From contig JALHMO010000055.1 of the NCBI GenBank assembly GCA_022844015.1, forward strand, positions 8,305-32,304: 24,000 nt of DNA, given 5' to 3'. The DNA is from Reyranella sp. Lineage in GTDB: Bacteria > Pseudomonadota > Alphaproteobacteria > Reyranellales > Reyranellaceae. Below are positions 10,959 to 17,165 of the stretch, one piece after another. How positions within the stretch are numbered: the first letter of the stretch is position 1; every line of letters begins with the position of its first letter. The translations under genes and the position numbers were made by a program. Under the pieces are notes generated by a model. That model was not told the DNA's origin. It made no database searches and was given only the letters and a program-made list of their open reading frames with translations.

Positions 10959-12185
10959 TCACGCCCGCTGGGCTTCCTTCTCGGCCATCTTCTGCTTCAG
11001 CTGCTCGGGCGTGAGGCGGACGATGTGCTCGTTCTGATGGCTGTAGATGTCGTACTTCCCGACATCGAGATCCTCGAGCACGATCTCGCGCGCCAGCACC
11101 TTCTGCTTCCAGGCGGCGTGCTCGGCCTCGGCGGCGTGGAACTCCGGCATGACCTCGCGCGCGAACAACTCGAGCGACACGCAGATGTCCTTGTGGCTGG
11201 TCTTGCCGGCCTGGTTCAGCAGGATGACCTGGTCGACGCGGCTCTGCTGGAACTGGCGCAGCTTGCGGCGGATGGTCTCCGGCGAGCCGATCAGGCCCGA
11301 CTCGAGCGCCTTGCGCTCCTCCGGCCCGCCTTTCCAGCTCTGGTACTCCTCCCAGAGATTGGAGGTGCCCGGCGCGTCGACGCCCTTCCGGCCGTAGTAC
11401 GACAGCGCAAAGATGAAGAACGTCCAGCCGGCGGCCTTGGCTTCGGCCTCCGCGTCGGTCGGCGCGCACATGAATCCGGACACCATGGCGACGTTGGGAT
11501 TGCTCGGATACTCGGCGAGCTTCCGGGAGTTGTTCAGCAGGTTGTTGTAGTACTTGTGCACCCAGGCGCGCGCCGCCTCCGGCGTGACGAAGGTGAAGCC
11601 GAGCGCGCCCATGCCCCATTCGCCGGCCTTGCCGATGGTCTGGATGTTGGAGCAGGCGACCCACAGCGGCGGATGCGGCTTCTGGAACGGCTTGGGGATC
11701 ACGTTGCGCGCCGGGAAGTCGTAGTACTGGCCGTGGAACTCCCAGCTGTCGCGCGTGAACATCGGGACGATGGCCTTGACCGCCTCCTCCCAGCGCTCGC
11801 GCTTGTCGCGCACGCGGATGTTGAACGGATGCAGCTCGGCCGGTCCCGCCGCCTCGCCCATGCCTAGATCGACGCGTCCGCCCGACAGCAGGTCGAGGGT
11901 GGCGATGCGCTCGGCGACGCGGTGCGGCTGATTGGTGGTGAGCTGGACCACGCCATGTCCGAGCCTGATCCGCTTGGTGCGTTGGCTGGCCGCGCCGAGA
12001 AAGACCTCCGGCGCCGAGGAGTGCGAGTACTCCTCGAGGAAATGATGCTCGACCTCCCACGCGTAGTCGTAGCCCAACGCATCGGCCAGCTCGATCTGGG
12101 TCAATGAATCCTGCAGCAGCTGGTACTCGCTGCTCGGTCCCCAGGGACGTGGCAGCTGATGCTCGTAGAAAATGCCGAATTTCAT
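10959..12185 (-). CDS. LLM-class (luciferase-like) flavin-dependent monooxygenase
   Basis: 408-aa ORF with ATG at 12185 preceded by GGGAG. MKFGIFYEHQLPRPW......LGYDYAWEVEHHF..EYSHSSAPEVFL......T.RIRLGHGV is the classical bacterial-luciferase TIM-barrel N-terminus. Confidence 0.88.
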   Translation of the reverse strand: MKFGIFYEHQLPRPWGPSSEYQLLQDSLTQIELADALGYDYAWEVEHHFLEEYSHSSAPEVFLGAASQRTKRIRLGHGVVQLTTNQPHRVAERIATLDLLSGGRVDLGMGEAAGPAELHPFNIRVRDKRERWEEAVKAIVPMFTRDSWEFHGQYYDFPARNVIPKPFQKPHPPLWVACSNIQTIGKAGEWGMGALGFTFVTPEAARAWVHKYYNNLLNNSRKLAEYPSNPNVAMVSGFMCAPTDAEAEAKAAGWTFFIFALSYYGRKGVDAPGTSNLWEEYQSWKGGPEERKALESGLIGSPETIRRKLRQFQQSRVDQVILLNQAGKTSHKDICVSLELFAREVMPEFHAAEAEHAAWKQKVLAREIVLEDLDVGKYDIYSHQNEHIVRLTPEQLKQKMAEKEAQRA

Positions 12186-12218
12186 GTCCGCTCCCTCGCC
12201 TTCCTCTCGCCAGGCCGC

Positions 12219-13109
12219 TCAGGCCTTGGCTTGCCCGCAGAATGTCGCGATGCGCTCCACCAGGGTCGGCACCAGCGCATCCGGCATGTCATGGCCCCAT
12301 CCCGGATAGGTCTCGATCTCGGCGCCCGGCACCAGGCGCGCCACGTCGCGGCCGCACTCGACCGGCAACAAGGGATCCTCCTCGCCGTGCAGGACCAGCG
12401 TCGGCGCCCTCACCGTCTTCAGCAGCTCGACCCTGTTGCCCGAGGCGATGATCGCGAGGTACTGGCGCCCCGCACCCTCGGGATACCAGCGCCGATCGAT
12501 GTTGATGGCGACGAGTTCCCGCAAAGCGTCCTCGGAGGCGGGATAGCCGGGGCTGCCGATGGCCGCACGCACCTTCATGCCGTGGGCGATCAACTGATCG
12601 CGCGCCGGCCCGGACGGCAGCGCGGTCAGCATGGCCAGCGCCTCCGGCTTGCCGAGCGGCAGGCCCGGCCGGCCGCTGGTCGAGAAGATCGACACGAGGG
12701 AACGTGTCCGCTGCGGTGCCACGCCGGCGATCGTCTGGGCGATCATGCCGCCCATCGAGCCGCCGACGATATGCGCGCGGTCGATGCCCAGCGCATCGAG
12801 CAGTCCGGTCCCGTCCGCCGCCATGTCGCTCACCAGGTAAGGCGCCGCGACCTTCCTGCCGCCCATCGCATCGCGCAGCGCCCCGGCAATGTCCGGAGGC
12901 CCCCACGCGCCGAAATCCGTCGACAGGCCGCAATCGCGATTGTCATAGCGGACGACGAAGAACCCCTTGCCGGCCAATCCCTCGCAGAACGCCCTGGGCC
13001 ACAGGGTGAGTTGGGCGCCGAGACCCATGATGAGCAGCATCGCCGGATCGGCCCGGTTTCCGAATGTCTCGTACTCGATCTCGATGCCATTGGCCTTAGC
13101 CCGTGCCAC
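12219..13109 (-). CDS. alpha/beta-fold hydrolase
   Basis: 296-aa ORF with GTG start at 13109 preceded by a strong GAGGAGGG. It has the nucleophile elbow VGGSMGG (G-x-S-x-G), the oxyanion region LLIMGLG, and C-terminal ..VLHGEEDPL.. and ..GWGHD.. (catalytic Asp/His regions). Confidence 0.88.
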   Translation of the reverse strand: MARAKANGIEIEYETFGNRADPAMLLIMGLGAQLTLWPRAFCEGLAGKGFFVVRYDNRDCGLSTDFGAWGPPDIAGALRDAMGGRKVAAPYLVSDMAADGTGLLDALGIDRAHIVGGSMGGMIAQTIAGVAPQRTRSLVSIFSTSGRPGLPLGKPEALAMLTALPSGPARDQLIAHGMKVRAAIGSPGYPASEDALRELVAINIDRRWYPEGAGRQYLAIIASGNRVELLKTVRAPTLVLHGEEDPLLPVECGRDVARLVPGAEIETYPGWGHDMPDALVPTLVERIATFCGQAKA

Positions 13110-13313
13110 GCGCCCTCCTCGCTCGTTCTCACCTGTCGACCATGACTAGCGCGGCACCGATGAAACAGACAACTCATTCCGCCAACGTCGTAATGCTCGT
13201 ACTGATTGAGTGGACTTGATATTCATCCCTCGGATCGTGTACTTCATGCAGGTTCCATTTTTGTTCTATTCACAGGACCAAGGTGGTAGCCTTCGATCCA
13301 GGAGTTGGGTGCA

Positions 13314-14501
13314 ATGAAGGTTGCAGGACTATTTGCAGGCATTGGCGGCCTCGAGCTGGGGTTGCAGGCAGCCGGGCATGCGCCTGTCATGGCCTGCGAG
13401 ATTTGGGGGCCAGCTGCTGGCGTCCTGAAGGCCCACTTTCCCAAAGTTTCCAAGCGGCCAGACGTCAGGGAACTGAATTCCTTGCCACGCGCCGTAGACG
13501 TGCTCGCGGCAGGCTTCCCATGCCAGGACCTGTCTCAGGCAGGGCTGACCGCCGGCATCTCCGGCAAGAGATCTGGATTGGTCGACCATGTGTTTCGACT
13601 TCTCGACAATCGCCGCGTCGAGATTGTCATTCTCGAGAACGTTTCTTTCATGTTGTCCCTCGACAAAGGCGCCGCAATGGATCGCCTGACGAAGGCGTTC
13701 GAGGAGAGGGGCTACCGTTGGGCGTATCGAACCGTCAACTCACTGGCGTTTCTGCCACAACGCCGCGAGAGGGTGTTTTTGGTCGCGAGCGTCGGCGAGA
13801 TCGAGCCACAATCTGTGCTGTTCGCTGACGAGGTAAAGCCTTCCATCAGTCCGACCCGCCTGGATACCCACGCCCATGGGTTTTATTGGACAGAGGGTAC
13901 GCGCGGCCTGGGTTGGGCGCCGAACGCTGTGCCAACCTTGAAGAATGGGTCGACTATCGGCATTCCCTCCCCGCCGGCGATCCTGCTGCCTTCCGGAAAG
14001 ATCATCAAACCCGACATCAGGGACGCCGAGCGGCTGCAGGGCTTTCCCAGCGACTGGACTTCCTCTGCTCCAGAGAGGCAACGCTGGTCGCTCGTCGGAA
14101 ATGCCGTGTCGGTTCCCGTTGCCAAGTGGCTCGGAGAACGCCTGCAGATGCCTGGCCTGTACGAGCGCGACCGCGATCGCGATTGGTCGAGAAAGCCTGG
14201 TGCCTTTCCGCGGGCCGCGAGGTTCGATGGTAGTCGGCGGCACGTTGTCGAGATCAGTGACTTCCCGGCTTGGGTCCGCCGCCCCGATCTGCACGAATTC
14301 TTGCATCATCCCGGCGTACCGCTCTCCGAACGTGCAACCACCGGATTTCTCAAGCGCGCAGAAGCGTCGTCTCTTCGATTTGTGCCGGGATTCCTCGATG
14401 CGGTCCGTTTACATCTGCGAAAGATGGCAGATGCGCGACTGCAGGGTCAGATGGTCGAAGAGCGACTGCTCTCGCCAACGACTGCTCGGGCCGCAGCCTG
14501 A
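13314..14501 (+). CDS. DNA (cytosine-5)-methyltransferase
   Basis: ATG at 13314 lies 9 nt after AGGAG (13300-13304). All diagnostic m5C-MTase motifs appear in order: I LFAGIGG, IV GFPCQDLS, VI ENV, VIII QRRERVF, IX-region RDAERLQGFP, X GNAVSVP. Confidence 0.93.
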   Translation: MKVAGLFAGIGGLELGLQAAGHAPVMACEIWGPAAGVLKAHFPKVSKRPDVRELNSLPRAVDVLAAGFPCQDLSQAGLTAGISGKRSGLVDHVFRLLDNRRVEIVILENVSFMLSLDKGAAMDRLTKAFEERGYRWAYRTVNSLAFLPQRRERVFLVASVGEIEPQSVLFADEVKPSISPTRLDTHAHGFYWTEGTRGLGWAPNAVPTLKNGSTIGIPSPPAILLPSGKIIKPDIRDAERLQGFPSDWTSSAPERQRWSLVGNAVSVPVAKWLGERLQMPGLYERDRDRDWSRKPGAFPRAARFDGSRRHVVEISDFPAWVRRPDLHEFLHHPGVPLSERATTGFLKRAEASSLRFVPGFLDAVRLHLRKMADARLQGQMVEERLLSPTTARAAA

Positions 14502-14507
14502 GAAGGC

Positions 14508-14945
14508 ATGCCGCGCGGTACCTCGAGAGGAACCGATCCGCAGCGCAGCGCGCTAATGAAGCGCGTGCGTCAGAAGGGAACTCCGCTCGAGGTGGAAGTC
14601 GCCAGGATCTGCACTTCGTTGGGCCTGCGATACCGACGCAATGTCAAGTCATTGCCCGGGTCGCCCGATCTCGCGAACAAGACGGGAAAATGGGCCATCT
14701 TCGTGAACGGTTGCTTCTGGCATCATCACGCCAACTGCAGGTTGGCGACTATCCCGACACGAAATGCCCGCTTCTGGCAGCAAAAATTCTCGATGAACCG
14801 ACTACGAGACGCTCGCAAGATCCGGCAACTCGAGTGCCTGGGATTCCGGGTCGCGGTCGTCTGGCAATGCGAACTGGCCAAGAATCGTCGCATTGTCGGA
14901 CGCCTTTCAAATCTGGCCGAAGCGCGTATCGTAAAGGCCACGTAG
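14508..14945 (+). CDS. vsr: very short patch repair (T:G mismatch) endonuclease
   Basis: ATG at 14508 lies 6 nt after the methyltransferase stop. RSALMKRVRQKGTPLEVEV...LPGSPDL...AIFVNGCFWHHHANC...RNARFWQQKF..N..RD......LGFRV.VVWQCEL follows E. coli Vsr (..RSKNMRAI..DT..E..; ..LPGRPDF..; FTHGCFWHHHHC; ..FW..KI..N..RD). Confidence 0.92.
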   Translation: MPRGTSRGTDPQRSALMKRVRQKGTPLEVEVARICTSLGLRYRRNVKSLPGSPDLANKTGKWAIFVNGCFWHHHANCRLATIPTRNARFWQQKFSMNRLRDARKIRQLECLGFRVAVVWQCELAKNRRIVGRLSNLAEARIVKAT

Positions 14946-15755
14946 CCGGTCGATCATCGAGGTGTAGTGATAGACTTCGCCCGCCTGCGGTGCAGGATGT
15001 GCGGTCACGAGCTCGACCTTCGACCCGTCGTTGGGACAGTCGACTACCACGATACTCAGCGCGTCGTAGCCTTCGGTGCCTGCCTTCGATCTCCTCGGAA
15101 GCTGCTTCACCTTGTCCATCGTGATGTTCACCGACTTGGGTTGATCGTGAACGTTCCACTTTTCATTGTCCACGTGGTGCCTCTCGTTGCGGCCGGGACT
15201 CAGAAATTTCCGGGCGGCATTCACCATGACGAATCCGGCTGCGATTGCCAGATCGTGCGAACCGTGAATTGTCTGATGGCTGGAGTTCAGCTCGTCATAG
15301 AGTCGCGGGAGCGCCTTTTGGTGAGCGGTCATGCAGGCCTTCGCCTCCAAGGCGAGGAGGACGTTGCCCACGGGGGCTTGGCGTAACTCGGGCAGAGCCC
15401 GCAACTCGTCGAGCTCTCCTGCCGAGAGCTCGATTCTATGGTGCTCGGCCAATCCGGCCAAAGTGCGCGAACCCGCCTTCGCCGTGCTCGCCGGCAGGCT
15501 GATGACCAGATCGAGATCCTTCTTTCGGTCGTTTCGAAAGTCGCGCATCTCGTGGTTGATGCCGAAGCAAACCTTTCCCGATGCGACGTGCGCGCGGAAG
15601 AGATTCGATATGCGGAGCAGGTCGAAAACGATCGCCCAGCACGCGATCTTGGAGTGACGATCGCTTCGGCTGTGGTAGTTCCACGCGTTGCCGTGCTGGT
15701 CCTCGACCGAGGTCTTGGAAAGTGAGCGGACAAGGATCTCGGTGCCGGAAATCAT
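14907..15755 (-). CDS. hypothetical protein; candidate PD-(D/E)xK nuclease / type II restriction endonuclease partner of the adjacent methyltransferase
   Basis: 282-aa ORF with no competing frame, convergent with M-vsr. It contains KKD80-L-D82-LVIS, then about 55 aa later LLALE137-A-K139-ACMT, a D...ExK arrangement in hydrophobic strand-like contexts. I recognise no family. The function is inferred from context plus this motif only. Coding confidence is higher than functional confidence. Confidence 0.55.
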   Translation of the reverse strand: MISGTEILVRSLSKTSVEDQHGNAWNYHSRSDRHSKIACWAIVFDLLRISNLFRAHVASGKVCFGINHEMRDFRNDRKKDLDLVISLPASTAKAGSRTLAGLAEHHRIELSAGELDELRALPELRQAPVGNVLLALEAKACMTAHQKALPRLYDELNSSHQTIHGSHDLAIAAGFVMVNAARKFLSPGRNERHHVDNEKWNVHDQPKSVNITMDKVKQLPRRSKAGTEGYDALSIVVVDCPNDGSKVELVTAHPAPQAGEVYHYTSMIDRLRGLYDTRFGQI

Positions 15756-15810
15756 AGCCCTGATTCTGTTTCTTCGGGCGAAGTCTAACTGCCATCTACA
15801 CTGGAAGCAC

Positions 15811-16458
15811 TCAATACCGCCCGGTCCTCGCCGCCCACCAATAGGCGAGCGGCTTGCGCCAGGGTGTCAGGCCACCGTCGAGCGACAAGGCCGGAAGCAG
15901 GATGGGCAGTGCCGCCTTGTCGATCCTGCTGCGCAAGGCGCGGGCTTCGGCGAGCAGCGCCGCGCGCTCCGGTCCCTCGCCCATCAACCAGGCCGAGCCA
16001 ACTGTCCGGGCCGCCTGCAGCGTCGCAGCATCAGCGACGCCGAGCACGGCGAGCTCGAGATCGGCCAGTGCGTGGCCCGCGCGCACCACGTCGAGGGCGC
16101 CGTCGATTTCCTCCTCTCGGGCGTCGATCAGCGCCTCGAGCCTCTCGGGGGCGAGACGATGACGGCGCACTGCTTCGCTGAGCGCCTCGACGACAGGTTG
16201 CGCCCGCGGTGCGCCAGCGCCTGTCGCCTCGGCCACCGCCTCGCGCCACCACTGCAGGCGGATGCGCGCCAGCATGGGCTCTCGCGTGACCGTCGGGGTG
16301 CGCGCCAGCTCGTGATCGAAAGCCAGCAGCGCCAGCAGGTCGGAGCGCGCCGGCTCGGGCGCGAACAAGGCGGCGAGGAAGCGATCCCGGTCGGCAGCAC
16401 GCACCGTTTCGAGCACGTAGCGGTGTGCGGCGTCGGGCGCACGGTAGCCATCCGTCAT
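15811..16458 (-). CDS. squalene/phytoene synthase-family protein (short alphaproteobacterial form, NDUFAF6-like)
   Basis: 215-aa ORF. ...VRAADRDRFLAALFAPEPARSDLLALLAFDHELARTP..V.EPMLARIRLQWWREA matches the N-terminal pattern of the non-carotenoid phytoene-synthase-like proteins common in alphaproteobacteria. Confidence 0.72.
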   Translation of the reverse strand: MTDGYRAPDAAHRYVLETVRAADRDRFLAALFAPEPARSDLLALLAFDHELARTPTVTREPMLARIRLQWWREAVAEATGAGAPRAQPVVEALSEAVRRHRLAPERLEALIDAREEEIDGALDVVRAGHALADLELAVLGVADAATLQAARTVGSAWLMGEGPERAALLAEARALRSRIDKAALPILLPALSLDGGLTPWRKPLAYWWAARTGRY

Positions 16459-16568
16459 CGCGGACAGTGACCCAACTGCGACAGTTGAACGCAGCCCCCC
16501 GGAGGATTACACTTCCACTCATAGGGATTTGCCAATCCCTTCAATGAGATAAAGGGGGAGATACCGAG

Positions 16569-17165
16569 ATGGGTGCAATATTCACCTCGCCAGGACGCAC
16601 CGTAGCCGCCGGTGTCGTGCTGCTGATCCTGATCGTCATCGTCGTCGGCCTGCTGACCGGACAGATGGCCAAGATCGATCACAACTGGGCCACCTTCCTC
16701 ATGCGCTGGTTGCACGTCGTCAGCGGCGTGCTGTGGATCGGCCTTCTCTGGTACCTGAACTTCATACAGGTGCCGACCATGCCGACCATCCAGCCGGTCG
16801 AGAGCCGCAGCGCCATCACCAAGTACATTGCCCCGAACGTGTTGTTCTACTTCCGCCACGCCGCCCTCGCCACGGTGATCACGGGCCTGCTGCTGGCGTG
16901 GATGCTGGGCTACATCGTGAGCGCGCTGACCCTGCAGAAGGGCTTCGTGATGATCGGCATCGGCATGTGGATGGCGCTCGTCATGGCCTTCAACGTCTGG
17001 TTCATCATCTGGCCCAACCAGCAGAAGATCCTCGGCCTGGTCGAGGCGACCGCCGAGGAAAAGGCGGCGGCCGCCAAGCCGGCGCTCTATGCCAGCCGCT
17101 TCAACACCATGTTCTCGATCGGCATGCTCTATTGCATGGTGGCGCAACAGAACGCGCCGGTGTGA
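16569..17165 (+). CDS. integral membrane protein resembling the N-terminal membrane domain of urate hydroxylase PuuD (no cytochrome c domain present)
   Basis: ATG at 16569 is preceded by AGGGGGAG. The 198-aa product has about 4-5 hydrophobic spans, and LMRWLHVVSGVLWIGLLWYLNFIQVP resembles the PuuD N-terminal domain motif as I recall it. The function is uncertain. Confidence 0.6.
   Translation: MGAIFTSPGRTVAAGVVLLILIVIVVGLLTGQMAKIDHNWATFLMRWLHVVSGVLWIGLLWYLNFIQVPTMPTIQPVESRSAITKYIAPNVLFYFRHAALATVITGLLLAWMLGYIVSALTLQKGFVMIGIGMWMALVMAFNVWFIIWPNQQKILGLVEATAEEKAAAAKPALYASRFNTMFSIGMLYCMVAQQNAPV

Follow-up and report, generated by a model that had tools for sequence, protein, structure and literature searches.

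An unnamed PD-(D/E)xK family of putative Type II restriction endonucleases, encoded beside a C5-cytosine methyltransferase and Vsr in Reyranella sp.

What does a gene do that converges on the genes for a very-short-patch repair endonuclease and a C5-cytosine DNA methyltransferase, and that matches no described protein family? We addressed this question in a 24,000-nucleotide (nt) stretch from Reyranella sp. (assembly GCA_022844015.1, contig JALHMO010000055.1, positions 8,305 to 32,304; hereafter the window), which belongs to a 74-kb contig of a drinking-water/activated-carbon metagenome, and in which an initial annotation had singled out a 282-amino-acid (aa) open reading frame (ORF), here called R, as a candidate novel restriction endonuclease or other effector. 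Herein we conclude that R very probably encodes the restriction endonuclease of a Type II system, a member of a family without a name, in a cassette with the genes for Vsr (V) and the methyltransferase (M). The assignment builds on direct evidence for the integrity of the gene, the size of its family, the conservation of its residues, the topology of its core (in a model) and its linkage to two unrelated methyltransferase classes, and from these we infer its catalysis, dimeric state, methylation sensitivity and the nature of its site.

The ORF is present with the two motif-bearing segments that had been described, K78-K-D80-L-D82-L-V-I-S86 and V132-L-L-A-L-E137-A-K139-A-C-M-T143, and with the stretch E109-LSAGELDELRALPEL-124 to which the initial annotation had pointed as an apparently helical insert. 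The positions that matter are listed below, where the counts refer to 58 diverse homologues with identities down to 32%.

14907..15755, minus strand: R gene, putative restriction endonuclease (Type II; unnamed PD-(D/E)xK family); ATG start, 282 aa
15621-15623, minus strand: codon of D45, in helix 33-49; invariant (58/58)
15516-15518, minus strand: codon of D80; D in just 15/58
15510..15512, minus strand: codon of D82, an Asp in core strand 2 (77-88) that is proposed to bind metal; D in 54/58
15372..15491, minus strand: variable two-helix insert, residues 89-128, between strands 2 and 3 (from model and alignment)
15339..15347, minus strand: codons of E137-A138-K139, proposed (D/E)xK on core strand 3 (129-141), from conservation and model; E137 is 54 E + 2 D of 58, K139 is 57 K + 1 R of 58
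15291..15293, minus strand: codon of E155, in helix 145-166 after strand 3, a candidate additional active-site acid judging from its conservation; 57 E + 1 D of 58

Family searches, which covered R and its two neighbours, returned no match for R in Pfam, NCBIfam, PADLOC or PHROGs, and the PDB sequences matched neither the ORF alone nor a 58-sequence profile. The 58 aligned homologues, scanned one by one against Pfam and PADLOC, gave nothing either. The same annotation's view of R as an orphan holds for database naming, since every named homologue, including RefSeq WP_064832106.1, is labelled ‘hypothetical protein’, but fails for family size: at E ≤ 1e-3 we retrieved 3,866 clusters of homologues at 90% identity and 545 at 50% identity. 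Because nearly all of the 3,866 clusters have a near-uniform length of 280-285 aa, we regard R as a real gene. The family was found in 260 species-representative genomes, mostly Alphaproteobacteria, with a few each in Polyangia, Gammaproteobacteria, Acidobacteriota, Actinomycetota and Thermodesulfobacteriota. Homologues are also carried on two rhizobial plasmids, where RefSeq places the ‘hypothetical protein’ beside a ‘very short patch repair endonuclease’ and dcm.

AlphaFold2, run on the 58-sequence alignment of the family, yielded a model with a predicted local distance difference test score (pLDDT) of 96.4 and a predicted template-modelling score (pTM) of 0.93. Its elements follow one another as helices 33-49 and 51-58, strand 63-72, strand 77-88 (with D82), a pair of short helices (99-105, 112-120), strand 129-141 (with E137 and K139), helix 145-166 and strand 171-179, and the DSSP order is alpha-beta-beta-beta-alpha-beta in the full model as well as in a core-only model. 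We are therefore confident that R is predicted to adopt the canonical alpha-beta-beta-beta-alpha-beta core, in which strand 2 bears D82 and strand 3 bears E137-x-K139. This is the restriction-endonuclease core for which the initial annotation had proposed to look, and the helical insert that it had suspected between the two halves of the motif is seen in the model as helices 99-105 and 112-120, located between strands 77-88 and 129-141; residues 89-128 are also the least conserved stretch of the alignment. A Foldseek search against the PDB gave nothing significant (best E 0.015 with the full model, 0.11 with its core-only counterpart). By our count, the weak matches among the top 50 of the full model were mostly PD-(D/E)xK nucleases, namely SgrAI (repeatedly), BbvCI, OkrAI, PaqCI, PspGI, BstEII, Cas4, MGME1, Exo5, Mus81 and arenavirus endonucleases. 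Like proteins, and RecE in addition, were matched by the core-only model, for which SgrAI was the top solved structure. Among predicted viral structures the best match was ‘Restriction endonuclease [Synechococcus phage S-CAM7]’ (E 8.1e-4, probability 1.00, template-modelling score (TM) 0.55 on the target).

The conservation counts single out the same residues. D82, E137 and K139 persist to ~27-33% identity, whereas D80, which had been put forward together with them, lies outside the conserved motif. D45, H34, Y27, R151, N179, N242 and Y264 are each found in 58/58 sequences.

The third line of evidence is the genomic company that R keeps. The neighbouring genes and the layout of the cassette in the window are as follows.

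13305..14501, plus strand: M gene, C5-cytosine DNA methyltransferase, 398 aa from a TTG (PF00145 9e-46; TIGR00675; PADLOC MTase_II PDLC03324 3.7e-148)
14508..14945, plus strand: vsr, very-short-patch repair endonuclease, 145 aa (PF03852 8.7e-24; TIGR00632 1.4e-32; PADLOC Vsr)
14907..14945: tail-to-tail coding overlap of R and vsr, 39 nt, at the 3' ends of both genes
13110..15810: low-GC (guanine plus cytosine content) R-V-M cassette, 2.7 kb, flanked by a hydrolase gene of the host on one side and an SQS_PSY gene on the other, delimited by GC

The vsr gene lies directly 3' of the M gene and R converges on vsr. The PCQ motif can be read directly in the M sequence, for which gene callers choose the ATG at 13314 (395 aa). 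Using tblastn, we searched with M and Vsr of the window in 80 genome loci that carry R homologues, and sorted these loci by layout.

53/80 loci: layout as in the window (M and Vsr downstream, convergent)
12/80 loci: convergent C5-methyltransferase, without Vsr
6/80 loci: other gene orders that keep the C5-methyltransferase
3/80 loci: no C5-methyltransferase despite adequate flanks
6/80 loci: cut by contig ends

A DNA methyltransferase adjoins R in all 74 assessable loci, and every bacterial genome locus whose flanks are complete has one. In 71 of the 74 it is the orthologue of the C5-methyltransferase in the window, in most cases accompanied by Vsr. The most distant full-length homologues checked (33-36% identity) also adjoin C5-methyltransferases, in varied gene orders, and R and M, each compared with its copy in the window, diverge in step (identities correlated at r = 0.77, n = 68). 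The linkage of homologues to methyltransferases, which the initial annotation had named as a check on the nuclease proposal, was found in all assessable loci of the survey and in the most distant full-length homologues checked.

In three alphaproteobacterial genomes the partner is of another kind: at L015:5971-7800, L016:5995-7707 and L045:6001-7782 a ~305-aa PF01555 (N6_N4) methyltransferase is convergent with R (E 1e-31 to 5e-35), and Vsr is absent. These enzymes have a TSPPYG motif IV ahead of a DPFAGTGTT motif I, as in beta-class amino-methyltransferases, and the SPPY motif is typical of N4-cytosine methyltransferases. Since the three R ORFs fall in one small clade together with C5-linked copies, and since their methyltransferases are mutually 80-86% identical, sequence relationships suggest a single replacement of the partner followed by co-divergence. 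Across the surveyed loci, Vsr accompanies the 5-methylcytosine (m5C) enzyme only.

Two further loci, reached from two methyltransferase orthologues on long contigs, carry damaged copies of R. In L103 (4596-6861) an IS3-type (rve) insertion sequence (IS) splits R, so that residues 103-282 and 4-105 flank the rve genes, and in L104 (4594-6006) an IS adjoins the last 58 codons, all that is left of R; both loci retain intact copies of M and Vsr. A toxic endonuclease is expected to be lost ahead of its methyltransferase, and both loci match this pattern. As evidence they are indirect, and solitary homologues of R do occur on one phage contig and one archaeal plasmid. An Xre/RES toxin-antitoxin pair was also seen in L103, just upstream of the methyltransferase.

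Taken together, the core fold, the conservation of D82, E137 and K139 and the methyltransferase linkage all agree with a restriction endonuclease, which the initial annotation had favoured. R would accordingly be described as follows: a Mg2+-dependent PD-(D/E)xK enzyme, probably a homodimer, that would recognise a short cytosine-containing site and cut it when unmethylated. D82, E137 and K139 would make up its active site, to which D45 and E155 may also contribute. The adjoining C5-methyltransferase would shield host DNA, and Vsr would repair the T:G mismatches that arise from deaminated 5-methylcytosines, thereby limiting the mutational cost of m5C.

The 3' overlap of R and vsr is itself a kept feature, with a median of 39 nt and a range of 10-54 nt in 52 of the 58 convergent R/V pairs, and it was never seen where R faces M directly. 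It may be mere compaction or a site of control by convergent transcription. We consider it possible, if doubtful, that the family is a structurally distinct PD-(D/E)xK branch with an uncatalogued specificity, in which the overlap is regulatory (through convergent transcription or antisense) and ties restriction to the expression of the methyltransferase and Vsr; in that case the solitary phage and archaeal homologues described below would show that the scaffold also works outside restriction-modification.

The cassette as a whole has a GC of ~0.60, versus 0.67-0.70 in the flanks of the window, and its GC is below that of the flanks in 68/74 loci. Flanking genes are unlike those of the window in 76/78 other loci, and the insertion context is common only to the nearest relatives, L005 and L007; the R-V-M cassette therefore looks horizontally mobile. 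Terminal repeats, tRNA genes and Rfam elements were sought at the cassette borders and none were found. A 13-nt perfect inverted repeat, TAGACTTCGCCCG / CGGGCGAAGTCTA (14971-14983 and 15775-15787), is positioned in the R leader and at the R 3' end, just beyond the vsr stop codon, and was rejected as a real element because it is absent from other loci and is probably due to chance. Between the nearest genome relative (L005:4534-10842) and window positions 10959-17165 the distal flanking genes are 92-94% identical, while identities are 73% for R, 79% for M and 73% for V, and 69% and 70% for the adjoining SQS_PSY and hydrolase genes, respectively. This divergence could reflect replacement of the whole segment by recombination, or simply faster-evolving genes. 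On the Rhizobium phaseoli plasmid pRphaN841c (L085:1049-5302) the genes near the cassette include one for DUF2726 and the toxin-antitoxin pair VapBC, and this neighbourhood looks like a defence or mobile island. Two apparent oddities among the homologues were set aside. The 739-aa ‘fusion’ P0136 (L091:5001-7220) looks like a gene call merged with an upstream oxidoreductase, and it still adjoins a C5-methyltransferase; the apparently broken methyltransferase of L100 (3849-5536) is a gene-calling difference only, as its DNA is 100% identical to that of L101 (2884-4571), and of the two records one has an intact 390-aa methyltransferase call where the other has a pair of short, unrelated ones.

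Other explanations for R have to be weighed against this evidence. It is unlikely, in our judgement, that R belongs to a family that REBASE already holds as characterised, for which Pfam, the PDB and PADLOC have no model, and that it is hence an isoschizomer with the same mechanism. Close relatives of the partner methyltransferase are evidently catalogued, as M matches PADLOC PDLC03324 over its full length, and many sequenced restriction enzymes have no Pfam family; McaTI, to which we return below, is moreover a precedent for a characterised ORF clustered with a C5-methyltransferase and vsr. McaTI is, however, the sole analogue that we found and differs in the sizes of both R and M, no Methylococcus protein occurred among the top 120 matches of two R-family searches (one of them seeded with a gammaproteobacterial homologue), and the named homologues all carry the ‘hypothetical protein’ label. 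Were R instead an accessory nuclease of Vsr-type repair, such as a strand-discriminating nickase, its tail-to-tail position and conserved overlap with vsr would be natural, and a report of Vsr-linked genotoxicity tied to cytosine methylation in Caulobacter (PMC12907096) could be counted in its favour. We give this explanation hardly any probability: Vsr is absent from the 12 loci with R and a C5-methyltransferase and from the three with an N4-type enzyme, so that the constant partner of R is the methyltransferase and not Vsr, and the IS-disrupted copies of R leave M and Vsr intact.

It is also very unlikely that R uses a nuclease-like fold for a task other than restriction, either as a reader of methylation or as some other effector, such as a regulator, a toxin or a Type IV-like nuclease. 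What speaks for such an effector also weighs against a restriction endonuclease, namely the lack of a significant match to any solved restriction enzyme and the existence of homologues without an adjacent methyltransferase. The latter comprise a solitary copy on a phage contig from IMG/VR (L088:4974-5843, 40% identity, with an E-T-K motif), of which the 10.8 kb covered contain no DNA methyltransferase; a copy that adjoins a Schlafen-like helicase on a short contig (L098); and a copy on the Haloferacaceae plasmid CP132293.1 (L086:3905-4684, 27% identity, with a D-A-K motif). The plasmid also encodes, 3.2 kb from the R homologue and past ParB-like genes, a relative of the bacterial N4-type methyltransferase (L105:260-1282, 54% identical). 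Against an effector, a methyl-dependent nuclease encoded next to a working methyltransferase would turn on the DNA of its own host, and the switch between m5C-type and N4/N6-type partners fits an enzyme that is blocked by either mark. The catalytic triad is in addition conserved across the family and R is lost ahead of M. The initial annotation's second suggestion, an effector that uses methylation status, thus gained no support.

For the recognition site of the putative endonuclease, the host flanks of ~80 loci (678 kb) were examined for palindrome avoidance, with a Markov observed/expected (O/E) ratio for every 4- and 6-mer palindrome. No GC-rich hexamer was conspicuously avoided in these flanks (GCGCGC 0.96, GCCGGC 0.95, CGATCG 0.78); the low palindromes were only the generic CTAG (0.38) and CTCGAG (0.61), from which, as control genomes are lacking, no inference is drawn. 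The names of the top 120 methyltransferase homologues are all generic and give no clue to specificity, and the NCBIfam names for the N4-type partner are likewise generic only. A lead towards haloarchaeal CTAG methylases, offered by plasmid CP132293.1, was dropped when its N4-type methyltransferase could not be connected to the known CTAG methylase family, and no evidence was found for Caulobacter ScmA (YGCCGGCR) as an orthologue.

No experimental characterisation of the R family was found, in an analysis that did not extend to REBASE. If confirmed, the assignment would give a name to a large family (~3,900 clusters at the 90% level) that is now annotated as ‘hypothetical protein’. Since PADLOC, Pfam and NCBIfam miss the family, restriction-modification would be under-called in many soil and water Alphaproteobacteria, including on rhizobial plasmids, and the methyltransferases would be misread as solitary. 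R may also supply a new specificity for the restriction-enzyme toolbox, and the family would illustrate cleanly how, in nature, a single endonuclease scaffold can be paired with protection by m5C methylation plus Vsr or by an N4-type methyltransferase without Vsr. The type of system is ordinary (Type II restriction-modification with Vsr), and the understanding of restriction-modification is unchanged.

How, then, does the cassette compare with known systems? Among solved structures SgrAI is the nearest to the R model, at a non-significant level (E 0.05-0.1, TM 0.2-0.3). With Cfr10I and NgoMIV we take R to share a long spacer from the strand-2 Asp to the strand-3 Lys and a conserved Glu on the next helix (E155 in R). 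In enzymes of the CCGG family the catalytic Lys is followed closely by a conserved recognition motif, R-x-D-R or R-E-R, whereas in R the sequence after K139 is ACMTAHQKALPR and the motif of SgrAI, NgoMIV, Cfr10I and PspGI is absent; with no PDB sequence match and non-significant structural matches, membership in the CCGG family was rejected. Mrr-like and phage PD-(D/E)xK enzymes share with R the predicted phage restriction endonuclease that is its best structural match, and a protein with an Mrr-type domain was matched at E 0.033. Mrr enzymes are methyl-dependent and have no cognate methyltransferase, while the R family is methyltransferase-linked in bacterial genomes; Pfam scans of R and its homologues found no Mrr_cat, SRA, PUA or similar domain. 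The methyltransferase linkage and the lack of a modification-reading domain led us to reject Type IV or Mrr-like restriction for R.

The order of a C5-methyltransferase gene followed by vsr, as in the window, is also that of E. coli Dcm-Vsr and of the HpaII, XorII and Neisseria m5C systems, in which Vsr counteracts the deamination of 5-methylcytosine (PMC2615612). Dcm-Vsr has no restriction partner, whereas the cassette in the window has a conserved third gene that overlaps the 3' end of vsr. Judged by gene content, the documented system nearest to the cassette is McaTI from Methylococcus capsulatus Bath, in which an unassignable ORF (MCA1617) lies between the C5-methyltransferase gene MCA1616 and the vsr gene MCA1618; its product, first picked out from the genes around it, proved active and cuts GCGC^GC (PMC2615612), which sets a precedent for the present assignment. 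Published sizes differ between the two systems: R.McaTI has 1,023 bp (340 aa) and M.McaTI 1,038 bp (345 aa) (PMC13390346), compared with 282 and ~395 aa here, and the McaTI site GCGCGC shows no avoidance in the host flanks of the R family (O/E 0.96). What they have in common is a C5-methyltransferase, a Vsr and a family-less restriction enzyme, putative in the case of R, encoded together, and the M-R-V order of McaTI also recurs in the distant loci L076, L078 and L080 of the R family.
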